The translations under genes and the position numbers were made by a program. A stretch of DNA of 64,000 nt, taken from positions 31,701 through 95,700 of the forward strand of contig JAEXDQ010000037.1 of the NCBI GenBank assembly GCA_023401595.1, read 5' to 3'. The notes below the pieces were generated by a model. The model was not told where the DNA came from and did no database searches. It saw nothing but the letters and a program-made list of their open reading frames with translations. Origin of the DNA: Spirochaetota bacterium. GTDB taxonomy: Bacteria > Spirochaetota > Spirochaetia > Sphaerochaetales > Sphaerochaetaceae. Below are positions 43,549 through 45,731 of the stretch, piece by piece. Position 1 is the stretch's first letter. Every line of letters starts with the position of its first letter.

Positions 43549-44127
43549 CTACTGGCGAGAAAGCGGTCTGGGAGCCACGGAAGCAGCCAGGATATCCAGC
43601 AACCGACTCATCGCCTCGGTCGGTTCCTGTCGTTTGGCCGACACATGAATCTGGTACTTCGCGCTTTGGTTCGTTTCCCTGGTCTGGGCCGCGCTACTGG
43701 AGACCTTTCCGGAAACCGCCACTCGGGACGGCTCCGATGTGGAACTTCCGGAAGAATCTTCAGATAGCCGTACCTCGGTTTTTTCTTGGAGGCTTTCGGA
43801 CGCGGTCACTTCCATCTGGAAGTCAATCACGACCTCCTCCACCGCCAGTGATGGAATCGGAGCAAGCGCAAGCAACGGAGCCTGTACGCTGAGTTCATTC
43901 ATGACGATACCATCAGAAGTTTCTACAGGCTGCTTGACTGAAAACTCCAGCATCCGGGCTTTCCGTGAAGAACCTTCGTCCACCCCGAGCCTCAGCATAT
44001 AGTCGACTGTCGCTTGCGACAGATTCCTCTGCGCCTCCGCGGCCGCCTCAAGCGGAGCGGAGATCAACGCAGCCATCGGCACTCCTTGCAACGCCTGCTG
44101 CACGGGTGTGGCCGGTCTGTCATCCAT
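43549..44127 (-). CDS. DUF2589-like protein, paralog C
   Basis: AGGAGG lies 6 nt upstream of the ATG. It shares KARMLEF, QAPLL.L.P.P.L, IDFQMEV, SGKVS, AKYQ.HV.AK.Q and LLD.LA blocks with 44180-44755. The DUF2589 label is from memory. Confidence 0.65.
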   Translation of the reverse strand: MDDRPATPVQQALQGVPMAALISAPLEAAAEAQRNLSQATVDYMLRLGVDEGSSRKARMLEFSVKQPVETSDGIVMNELSVQAPLLALAPIPSLAVEEVVIDFQMEVTASESLQEKTEVRLSEDSSGSSTSEPSRVAVSGKVSSSAAQTRETNQSAKYQIHVSAKRQEPTEAMSRLLDILAASVAPRPLSRQ

Positions 44128-44179
44128 ATATTACCTCCTAGACATTAAGAACGCCTTCCGCCGAAACCCCACGCCGCAA

Positions 44180-44755
44180 TCATGCCGCGGGGCTCACCGC
44201 AATCTGCACGGGCTCTGTACAAGAGGCCAGAAGATCCATCAGCTTGCCCATGCATTCAGTCTGGGGTTGTTGCTTCGCTTCGACATGCACCTGGTACTTG
44301 GCCGTCTGATTGGTGGAACGGGTGTTCTCCTTGCTCGTGGAGACCTTGCCCGATACGGAATACTTCTGCCCGAAGAACCCGCCAGAAGCGCTTGCGGAGA
44401 CCTCCGCGTTGGTATTCGACTTGGAGCTGGTAGCCGTGGAGACTTCCATCTGGAAATCGATGGTCACGGTATCGACCAGCAACGCCGGCATAGGAAGCAG
44501 ACCGAGCAACGGAGCCTGCATGGAAACCTCGGTCGTCGAAATTTCATCACCTACCGCGATAGGTCGTTTGATGTTGAATTCCAACATCCGGGCCTTCGCG
44601 GCATTTTCCGGATCAAAACCGACCGTGTTGATATAGCCGATCATGACATCGGCCAGATCCTTCTGTGCGCTGACGACGGCGATCAACGGTCCGCCGATCA
44701 ACTCACCCATGGGCAGTCCGCCCATCATGTTCGCAATTTCTCCTGCCATATACAT
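44180..44755 (-). CDS. DUF2589-like protein, paralog B
   Basis: It is clearly paralogous to 43549-44127. The AGGAGG spacing favours the second ATG (44749, MAGEIANMM). Confidence 0.65.
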   Translation of the reverse strand: MYMAGEIANMMGGLPMGELIGGPLIAVVSAQKDLADVMIGYINTVGFDPENAAKARMLEFNIKRPIAVGDEISTTEVSMQAPLLGLLPMPALLVDTVTIDFQMEVSTATSSKSNTNAEVSASASGGFFGQKYSVSGKVSTSKENTRSTNQTAKYQVHVEAKQQPQTECMGKLMDLLASCTEPVQIAVSPAA

Positions 44756-45035
44756 CCCTCCTAGCTCTTTGTCAGCCTGCCATACGACAGGCCAAGATCA
44801 TTTCACTTTGAAAGGATTCCACCCGTTCCTCTCCTACAATCCACAACTCCACGGATACCCTTACCTTACGGTTACGGATCGGAAGGTTCCACATGTTCCC
44901 ATCAGCCCTCTACCCGGGATTTCCTGATATCCTCGTTTTTCTCCAGACTCATTCGGAACGACTTCTGCTTCCAGTAGCCTTGTTCAGAAGCGGCTGCATC
45001 AGACTACATGCGGAACCGTCCGGTCTTGTCCTCGC

Positions 45036-45731
45036 CTATTCATTTTCCACCCCATTGGATCCATGCGTGTCAGAGTCGTCATCCTCCGTCCGTTCGGAAA
45101 ATGGTTCATTATCGAACACGAAAGTCGGCGGATCTCCCGAATCGCCCGACGAGGGGTGGACATCATAGGGAGCCACAAGCTTGTTGTACTCGTCGATAAT
45201 GCGCGACAGGCCCTCGGGTTGGTCCGCCGACAGGAACTTGATGCGGACGCCGATGACATTCCCCGCCCCCTCACCTCTAGGTACGGTAGAGGAAAATCCT
45301 ATGTTGAAGGTTGCTGATCCCTCTTCATCAGAAGACGCACCGTCTAGTTTCGTAGTAGCGGCGTCTGAAGCATCTTCAGATTCAGAAGGCAGAGAGCCTC
45401 CATTTCCAGAAAGAATCTGCTTCAGCTCATCGAGATCCTTGACTGAGACTTCTTCAATCCTGGCCTTGAATTCCATTTCCAGCTCATCTATTTTCAACGA
45501 ACTGTGGTTTGCCAAAGTCACCAACGGTATGTCGATATGCTTCGTTCCTCCAAGATGGAGGTCGACCGATTTCGGATCGCCGTCAGCATAGAAGAACCGG
45601 AGAAGGGATTTCAGATGGTGGACTTCCAGCGTCCGCTGAGCCTCATTGACAGCATGCTGCATACCGCGAATCACCTGGGACAAGTCAACGCCCATTTTCA
45701 AGGGCTCTTTGTTCTTTCTGAATATGCCCAT
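45036..45731 (-). CDS. Divergent DUF2589-like protein, paralog A, with acidic low-complexity insert and tail; first gene of the operon
   Basis: The ATG at 45731 lies 8 nt after AAGGAG. It has the same block order as paralogs B and C (IDIPLVTLANHSSLKIDELEMEFKARI versus QAPLLALAPIPSLAVEEVVIDFQMEV; GVRIKFLSADQPEGLSRIIDEY versus YQIHVSAKRQEPTEAMSRLLDIL). It also has a Ser/Asp/Glu-rich insert and a C-terminal tail. Confidence 0.55.
   Translation of the reverse strand: MGIFRKNKEPLKMGVDLSQVIRGMQHAVNEAQRTLEVHHLKSLLRFFYADGDPKSVDLHLGGTKHIDIPLVTLANHSSLKIDELEMEFKARIEEVSVKDLDELKQILSGNGGSLPSESEDASDAATTKLDGASSDEEGSATFNIGFSSTVPRGEGAGNVIGVRIKFLSADQPEGLSRIIDEYNKLVAPYDVHPSSGDSGDPPTFVFDNEPFSERTEDDDSDTHGSNGVENE

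Follow-up and report, generated by a model that had tools for sequence, protein, structure and literature searches.

DUF2589 paralog pairs at the head of operons with an exchangeable slot for toxin-like enzymes

Three small tandem genes, here called A, B, and C, head an operon in a 64,000-nucleotide stretch of the Spirochaetota contig JAEXDQ010000037.1 (assembly GCA_023401595.1, positions 31,701 to 95,700; this whole stretch is referred to as the window), and five further genes on the same strand, D, E, F, G, and H, follow from 43524 down to 40172. The locus raises the question of what the three head proteins do, and why genes for toxin-like enzymes should stand behind them. An original prediction, made from the sequence alone, had described A, B, and C as diverged paralogs of the Pfam family DUF2589 that might assemble into a hetero-oligomeric pore, coat, or filament; the trio does stand at the operon head, as three minus-strand open reading frames (ORFs) with the five other genes 3′ of them. 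The variable toxin-like cassette behind this conserved module was overlooked at that stage, and we consider it the most informative feature of the locus.

All three proteins score above the gathering threshold of PF11655 (DUF2589; 23 bits, model of 154 positions), which bears out the family assignment: B with 129 bits (E = 1.9e-37) and C with 118 bits (E = 5.6e-34), both over model positions 1–152, and A with 53 bits (E = 6.3e-14) over positions 2–153. In BLASTP comparisons, B and C share 44% identity across 181 residues (E = 3e-52) and contain the sequence blocks that had been quoted for them, while A aligns significantly with C (E = 7e-5, N-terminal 93 residues only) and not with B (E = 0.48). 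A profile of A-type orthologs nevertheless aligns with the B-type profile over 160 columns (hhalign; probability 94%, E = 1.3e-7), so the earlier description of A as highly diverged with the same block order is correct and the paralogy extends to all three ORFs. By these alignments, A is a full-length, diverged DUF2589 paralog.

Each of the three proteins belongs to a separate orthologous lineage in BLASTP searches. A from the window is 30–47% identical to its orthologs in Treponema, Spirochaetia, and Bacteroides (42–47% to those of Treponema and Spirochaetia, ~31% to that of Bacteroides fragilis), B is 49% identical to its Bacteroides fragilis ortholog and is, by such comparisons, the most conserved subunit, and C clusters with other spirochaete C copies, with B as its nearest relative otherwise. 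Scans against NCBIfam, PADLOC, and PHROGs gave no match for A, B, or C. No member of the family has been characterised, and literature searches on DUF2589, PF11655, and DUF261 gave nothing functional; the sole mention of DUF2589 in the literature searched is an up-regulated four-gene “DUF2589 related” array of Archaeoglobus, AF0414–AF0417 (PMC3949148).

Obligate pairing of A-type and B-type subunits

Across 92 loci gathered from metagenomes and from one genome per species, DUF2589 genes were typed as A or B with two purpose-built hidden Markov models. Of these loci, 89 contain both types, and the unit is therefore an obligate pairing of the A type with the B type. The order AB is found in 52 loci, ABB in 28, BA in 5, and AAB in 4, while B stands alone in 3, at least two of which lie at or near contig ends. 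The ABB triplet is confined to spirochaete loci (L001–L031); the window carries it as an adjacent, same-strand heteropair of A and B plus a second B-type copy, C. The hetero-oligomer envisaged in the original prediction gains indirect support from this co-occurrence, from the separate paralog lineages, and from the sub-functionalisation of C described below.

The DUF2589 module is widespread across phyla and horizontally mobile. Hosts include Spirochaetota, Bacteroidota, Bacillota, Desulfovibrionaceae, Campylobacterota, Gammaproteobacteria, Planctomycetota, and Calditrichota, along with Succinivibrionaceae, Vibrio, Burkholderia, and Hyphomicrobiales, and the B-type profile recovers 2,715 clusters (50% identity) at E ≤ 1e-3 (HMMER). 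Searches with tblastn found only five matches in plasmid records and not one among 50,697 phage records; the family thus belongs to cells and not to phages, and a phage origin was rejected.

Several homologs are considerably longer than the window proteins. One B-type subfamily (P0183, P0189, P0212, P0222, and P0252; 366–409 aa) has a C-terminal extension of ~190 aa that resembles a coiled coil, and other homologs have long helical N-terminal extensions. Natural A–B fusions were looked for among the long homologs, which proved to carry low-complexity or coiled-coil extensions instead. In P0241 (484 aa), an N-terminal Amidase_2 domain is followed by a long acidic linker and then the DUF2589 domain; the C-terminus of this fusion looks partly duplicated and may be an artefact.

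AlphaFold2 monomer models of B (mean predicted local distance difference test score, pLDDT, of 63.7; alignment of 40 sequences) and of a compact A-type ortholog (mean pLDDT 61.5; 23 sequences) have one topology: a long N-terminal helix and a long beta-hairpin, then a short helix in a Pro-rich loop and a single strand, followed by a middle segment that is modelled poorly, another one or two strands, and a C-terminal helix. The short helix of the B model lies within the conserved hydrophobic Pro-rich loop APxLGLVPIPSLL. Foldseek searches of the PDB with both models returned nothing better than E = 0.3, and sequence and profile searches of PDB sequences with B found no solved relative. A, B, and C all lack a signal peptide and, in a hydropathy scan, a transmembrane helix; their Kyte-Doolittle maxima over 19 residues are 0.70, 1.64, and 1.65, respectively, and those of B and C fall in a Pro-rich loop and not in a helix.

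The middle segment of B is modelled as disordered (pLDDT <50), yet it is among the best-conserved stretches of the protein. Column analysis reveals a strict period-2 alternation of hydrophobic and polar residues at positions 117–138, the pattern of an amphipathic beta-hairpin. The turn positions 127/128 are hydrophobic and rich in F/W in 87–100% of sequences, K137 is invariant, and the hairpin is flanked by a Ser/Thr-rich linker on its N-terminal side and by an invariant (K/R)ENTRSTNQTAKYQ motif after it. This hairpin segment measures exactly 42 aa in all 21 non-redundant spirochaete B copies. In C copies it ranges from 30 to 69 aa, is more charged, and has an aromatic tip in none of 12. Since C lacks the hairpin tip and its segment varies in length, it is a sub-functionalised subunit and not a redundant copy, and on these comparisons it is a spirochaete-specific duplicate of B in which the tip was lost.

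A carries the acidic insert (residues 93–140, net charge −10) and the acidic tail (residues 186–231, net charge −12) that had been noticed in its translation, within a protein of net charge −21 overall. Its N-terminus belongs to the conserved part of the A type, MG(I/L)(F/W)xK with basic residues after it. Members of the A type are between 159 and 327 aa long, and their insert and tail are low-complexity segments of variable length that are missing in compact A-type members and in the Bacteroides ortholog. The proposal that the tail is an inhibitory or cleavable segment is therefore unlikely to hold in general, because the tail is lineage-specific.

A swappable slot for enzymes and its genomic setting

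The slot consists of the gene behind the pair, and sometimes also of one that precedes it. Slot genes share the strand of the pair, with gaps of 0–100 nt, and across loci they come from many unrelated families. A family of ~200 aa, here termed FSGC, occupies the slot in 25 Bacteroidales loci (e.g., L072 4559–5149 and L004 8806–9474), sometimes on both sides of the DUF2589 pair. Its invariant residues are S, F, G, C, A, H, I, W, and P, arranged as S..F.GC.MA with the H ~15 residues later, and it matches nothing in Pfam or the PDB; on this residue pattern it may represent a new Cys-His enzyme or toxin family. The Cys-His spacing of 15 recalls CNF1/BLF1-like proteins, and a deamidase assignment was considered and set aside, Pfam and PDB lending it no support. 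DUF261 fills the slot in 17 Treponema loci, and its Cys/His/Asp pattern aligns with that of the E family from the window. PDB searches with the E family, with DUF261 and E combined, and with FSGC yielded no credible match.

Other slot genes encode Exo_endo_phos (EEP) and GIY-YIG nucleases, YopT-like proteins, deaminases of the dCMP/cytidine type and of the MafB19-like and XOO_2897-like families, and the wall hydrolases Peptidase_M15_3, Amidase_3, and M23, along with a weak HNH match. In four loci, Peptidase_M15_3 lies no more than two genes from the pair. The XOO_2897 and MafB19 deaminases were defined as domains of polymorphic toxins, some of which come without immunity genes (PMC3239186). 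An N-terminal hydrophobic leader is missing in 71 of 76 non-redundant slot proteins. A common origin of these third genes was considered and rejected: pairwise hhalign comparisons linked only the E cluster and a Spirochaetia protein of locus L011 (probability 79), and for this reason we do not claim that all slot proteins are peptidases.

The boundary of the slot is drawn sharply by natural swaps. Bacteroides bouchesdurhonensis has two loci in one genome, with A 98.2% and B 94.8% identical between them, followed by unrelated third genes, one for an EEP-type protein and the other for an FSGC protein; DNA homology (92%) stops at the stop codon of B. A sister strain matches the window at 96–100% identity in A, B, and C, while E is 32% identical and the remaining cassette is replaced. 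DNA homology between these sister strains (~96% identity) begins inside the gene for the helix-turn-helix (HTH) regulator upstream of A, runs through A, B, C, and D, and stops at the stop codon of D. In one sister strain the replaced cassette encodes a 159-aa protein with an HAE...PCxxC deaminase motif. The conserved proteins thus do not co-vary with the enzyme that follows, which points to interchangeable effectors rather than a dedicated activator. At L007 13020–13499 and L015 11362–12357, both in Sphaerochaetaceae, an HAE...PCxxC protein is present in place of F, G, and H of the window.

D, the last gene of the conserved block, is a lineage-specific accessory protein. It is seen only in Sphaerochaetaceae loci, is conserved only from MKTKRV on, has its Kyte-Doolittle maximum (2.25 over 19 residues) at residues 11–29, and gave no match in a Pfam scan. 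For E, the first gene of the variable cassette, a search for homologs found only three close relatives; Cys35, His154, and Asp175 are invariant in five homologs, and the match to TIGR01586 is weak and below cut-off (15.8 bits against 52.95; E = 0.011). G matches PF21646 over residues 45–171 with 37.7 bits, above the gathering score of 27 (E = 3.2e-9); weak thaumatin matches from a PDB search were limited to its Cys-rich tail and judged compositional. F has no family match in Pfam, NCBIfam, PADLOC, or PHROGs, and a 78% identical copy precedes the G ortholog in locus L014. A related Sphaerochaeta locus carries D, a second ACTMAP-like paralog, F, and G, in that order.

Slot proteins from two unrelated families end in -C-R-I (SSCRI, CCRI, PCRI, and LCRI) or -CCILI (L011 9124–9864, L067 10575–11273, L068 8765–9493, L086 4424–5119, and L054 10555–11271), termini that look like a lipidation or sorting motif. 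A C-terminal tag shared among slot proteins was considered and dropped, since neighbours show no clear excess of Cys among their four C-terminal residues (48 of 513) over background ORFs (80 of 1,308).

The features of the operon and its surroundings are collected in Table 1. At the genome level, the closest match comes from Sphaerochaetaceae, a metagenome-assembled genome with a B ortholog 98% identical to that of the window. An AAGGAG box is well placed for the A start codon (ATG at 45731). In B, an AGGAGG box lies immediately 5′ of the first ATG, so that the third codon is the probable start and the protein has 189 aa, as called in public assemblies. An RNA element in the spacer between A and B was considered and rejected: an Rfam search gave no match, and the predicted fold is not significantly better than those of shuffled sequences (z-score −1.9; 11 of 200 shuffles as stable).

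Table 1 Features of the DUF2589 operon and its flanks in the window (positions count from the first letter of the window)
Feature	Coordinates	Strand	Description	Remarks
HTH regulator	46001..46369	+	122 aa, cI-like, divergently transcribed	Phage_CI_repr 1.3e-7, HTH_3 3.3e-7 (Pfam)
Palindrome	45799..45850		24-nt arms, 92% complementary, 4-nt spacer	Between HTH gene and A; candidate operator or 5′ untranslated region hairpin
A	45036..45731	-	A-type DUF2589 paralog, 231 aa	MGIFxK N-terminus, acidic insert, acidic tail
A–B spacer	44750..45035	-	About 280 nt
B	44180..44755	-	B-type DUF2589 paralog, 189–191 aa	Likely start 44749
C	43549..44127	-	B duplicate, 192 aa	Pfam 5.6e-34; 44% identity to B
D	42661..43392	-	243 aa from MKTKRV	Longest ORF start 43524; N-terminal signal anchor
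E	42013..42651	-	212 aa, candidate papain-fold (YopT-like) cysteine peptidase	First gene of variable cassette
F	41610..41996	-	128 aa, small acidic protein	Found together with G
G	40760..41599	-	279 aa, ACTMAP-like (C39-like) cysteine peptidase domain	Cys-rich C-terminal region
H	40172..40639	-	155 aa as in public assemblies	Longest ORF to 40720; last operon gene
PDC-S06 (AAA_13)	37938-39806		PADLOC defence candidate	5e-111
PDC-S27 (ATPase_2/DUF234)	47109-48497		PADLOC defence candidate	4e-47
HipA-like gene	48739-49929
PDC-S01 (AAA_14-DUF4143)	50327-51532		PADLOC defence candidate	5e-156
Schlafen/pAgo-associated ATPase	52216-53697

PADLOC defence candidates lie on both sides of the operon, which is set in an island of defence type, and it is these neighbours that match PDC models, whereas A to H gave no significant match in PADLOC-DB 2.0. 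Other loci adjoin ParE, Zeta, or HNH genes or integrases. Within the window, 46496–47014 looks like a truncated DUF4143 remnant, and positions 22001–24000 have a G+C content of 0.40 against about 0.50–0.54 around them.

Expression of the module looks tightly gated, by a cI-like repressor with a palindrome in the window and by a recombinase with a candidate inverton in Treponema. Sixteen loci, 15 of them in Treponema, have a tyrosine recombinase gene near the pair; in 12 it is divergent and stands immediately upstream of A. In locus L001, inverted repeats of 23 bp (7048–7070 and 7186–7208) flank 115 bp in the interval from the recombinase gene to A; the repeats recur in three other species (L017 9177–9341, L018 9063–9215, and L019 2820–2971), and the inner segment does not. 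On this layout, the segment is a candidate invertible promoter, with the same orientation in all four contigs of one species.

In Bacteroidales (L004–L006 and L071–L081; Bacteroides, Paraprevotella, and Xylanibacter), the pair repeatedly lies directly downstream of Mfa-type fimbrial genes, with DUF3575, Mfa2, Mfa_like_1, and a ~570-aa protein without family as neighbours, and is followed by a histidine kinase gene and a conserved ~440-aa gene without known family.

A proposed membrane-directed mechanism and its rivals

Our preferred explanation, held tentatively and with a probability of about 0.38, is that the DUF2589 module is a hetero-oligomeric, membrane-active device that releases or deploys leaderless toxic enzymes. 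A, B, and C would be produced in the cytoplasm and co-assemble as a hetero-oligomer, and the aromatic-tipped amphipathic beta-hairpins of B would engage the cytoplasmic membrane. The membrane would thereby be permeabilised, or a conduit formed, and co-expressed leaderless enzymes could reach the cell wall or the outside: the candidate cysteine peptidases E and G in the window, and nucleases, deaminases, or peptidoglycan hydrolases elsewhere. The module would act like a holin or colicin-lysis protein, with beta structure in place of transmembrane helices.

The conserved activity is probably membrane-directed because the invariant aromatic-tipped amphipathic hairpin of B is what C has lost, because the range of effectors matches that of exported toxins, and because an activity that comes at a cost to the producer is well served by repressor or phase-variable control. 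A route across the membrane also appears to be required, since leaderless wall hydrolases are repeatedly found in the slot and a wall-hydrolase fusion with DUF2589 exists. In its boldest form, the proposal would make A/B pairs a new class of beta-hairpin hetero-oligomeric channel, switched on in subpopulations by repressors or invertible promoters, that gives monoderm and diderm bacteria, and probably archaea, a universal outlet through which leaderless polymorphic toxins are exported or released without a dedicated secretion system; we regard this generalisation as doubtful.

Several points weigh against a membrane-active core. The amphipathic alternation that suggests membrane insertion is also expected of any beta-sheet packed on helices, and both AlphaFold models do have a sheet with two helices on it. 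The motif of highest conservation, (K/R)ENTRSTNQTAKYQ, is polar, unlike the poorly conserved stems of known beta-pore-formers, and in PDB searches the low-confidence models resemble no pore-former, holin, gasdermin, Hcp, or other solved fold. Peptidoglycan hydrolases form a minority of slot genes, and the single amidase fusion, with its partly duplicated C-terminus, could be an assembly artefact. Small leaderless nucleases and deaminases would have no obvious way into a target cell once released, and the Mfa-type fimbrial neighbourhood of many Bacteroides loci finds no explanation in this proposal. Finally, several minimal loci have no immunity gene, so that an intracellular, abortive-infection role fits as well or better.

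Such a role is the best-surviving alternative, and we consider it possible, though on the whole unlikely. A cytoplasmic DUF2589 sensor or scaffold would hold a toxic protease, nuclease, deaminase, or wall hydrolase inactive and unleash it on phage infection, with a conserved core and a variable effector as in CBASS, Lamassu, or retrons, and this is compatible with a core that is membrane-active. The flanking defence candidates of the window and the ParE, Zeta, HNH, or integrase neighbours of other loci fit this explanation, as do the variation of effectors behind a constant core, the minimal loci that lack immunity genes, slot proteins that are leaderless and therefore cytoplasmic, and the absence of the family from the phage records searched. 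However, A, B, and C match no PADLOC model, guilt-by-association candidates included, many loci lie outside recognisable defence islands, and defence genes are less typically governed by a phase-variable or cI-type switch. Nor do the small effectors have a recognisable sensor or signalling domain, and there is no evident way for a constant pair to restrain enzymes of unrelated folds.

We think it unlikely that the proteins instead form a cage, filament, coat, or carrier, in which an A/B/C polymer sequesters, displays, or carries the adjacent enzyme in the manner of an encapsulin with its cargo or of an R-body. An array of diverged tandem paralogs, each of a fixed subunit type, is typical of structural polymers, low AlphaFold confidence on monomers is frequent for obligate oligomers, and the coiled-coil-like and long helical extensions of some homologs, the amidase fusion as possible tethered cargo, and the four-gene Archaeoglobus array (PMC3949148) would all be in keeping with such an assembly. 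Yet no common targeting peptide was found on slot proteins, and Pfam and PDB fold searches showed no similarity to encapsulins, bacterial microcompartments, gas vesicles, or R-bodies.

Proteins with invariant Cys/His(/Asp) residues are the commonest neighbours (DUF261 in 17 loci, FSGC in 25, and YopT-like proteins, E, and G), which would suit a gasdermin-like pore that forms once the neighbouring cysteine peptidase has cut off an inhibitory part, for example A's acidic tail. The swap in Bacteroides bouchesdurhonensis speaks against this, as a Cys-His protein is exchanged there for an EEP nuclease-like protein behind A and B that are 95–98% identical, and an obligatory activator is unlikely. 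In addition, the acidic tail and insert are lineage-specific and variable in length, the peptidases have no sensor domain, FSGC is only a putative peptidase, and neither Pfam nor fold searches matched a gasdermin, all of which makes the explanation improbable.

Coincidence, with DUF2589 playing a role unrelated to enzymes that gather at an adjoining recombination hot spot, would account for downstream genes that are heterogeneous and in part clearly housekeeping (a TadA-like deaminase, LemA, and histidine kinases), but is very improbable given the same-strand arrangement with gaps of 0–100 nt, the homology break exactly at the module stop codon, and the recurrence of the same enzyme classes in unrelated phyla.

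DUF2589 is present in gut Bacteroides, Alistipes, Treponema, and many other taxa, and the family is now open to experiment through its obligate two-subunit core, a slot with recognisable toxin domains, and swap pairs that fix the boundary to the nucleotide. If the core is membrane-active as we propose, it would provide a new route for toxin deployment or infection-triggered suicide without a known secretion system, and would flag several uncharacterised families, the FSGC Cys-His family and DUF261 among them, as new toxins. If the module is a defence system instead, it is one that current catalogues have missed.

Comparison with known systems

Holin-endolysin pairs, type 10 secretion, and colicin lysis resemble the proposed module in letting leaderless enzymes leave the cytoplasm, a likeness that presupposes the membrane activity inferred here, and in combining tight repressor or bistable control with co-transcription of the exported enzyme. 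Holins and lysis proteins, however, are small and have transmembrane helices or are lipoproteins, whereas A, B, and C are ~190-aa alpha+beta proteins in obligate paralog pairs without a transmembrane helix.

Polymorphic toxin loci, such as Hcp/VgrG-effector islands and WXG100/Lap with LXG, likewise place small conserved proteins, often heterodimeric paralogs, at the operon head, undergo strain-level swaps of downstream toxin cassettes, and use the same effectors (deaminases, nucleases, papain-like peptidases, and wall hydrolases). They differ in that the DUF2589 toxins are free-standing genes and not C-terminal domains, and in that immunity genes are often absent. Unlike Hcp and WXG100 systems, the DUF2589 module occurs in both monoderm and diderm phyla, with no type VI or type VII secretion system in its loci. 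Searches for Hcp, tail-tube, and WXG100 relatives gave no Pfam, PHROGs, or fold match, and no type VI secretion or tail genes were found in the neighbourhoods.

Bacterial gasdermin-protease operons also combine a cytoplasmic leaderless candidate pore-former with adjacent peptidases and lie in defence islands. In the DUF2589 loci a nuclease can take the place of the peptidase, and no cleavable tail is conserved; Pfam gave no gasdermin match for A, B, and C, and the AlphaFold models found no fold match in the PDB at E < 0.3.

AhlABC, Nhe, Hbl, and XaxAB/YaxAB are secreted alpha-helical proteins of the ClyA family, 350–400 aa in length, that work as hetero-oligomeric tandem paralogs. They share with the present module an arrangement of two or three diverged paralogs in tandem, but the DUF2589 proteins are ~190 aa, alpha+beta, and leaderless. 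Aerolysin and ETX-MTX2 toxins have an amphipathic insertion hairpin with a hydrophobic tip and Ser/Thr-rich linkers between two long strands. The hairpin-like segment of B, modelled at pLDDT <50, is similar in its alternation, hydrophobic tip, and Ser/Thr-rich linker, and different in its invariant flanking polar motif and its short strands (~9 residues each); Pfam and Foldseek searches found no match to these toxins.

We therefore rate the module as lying outside the known kinds of system, on a mechanism reached by inference and on structural models that are weak. New to DUF2589, and worked out here, are the split into A and B subfamilies, their obligate pairing, and the effector slot.

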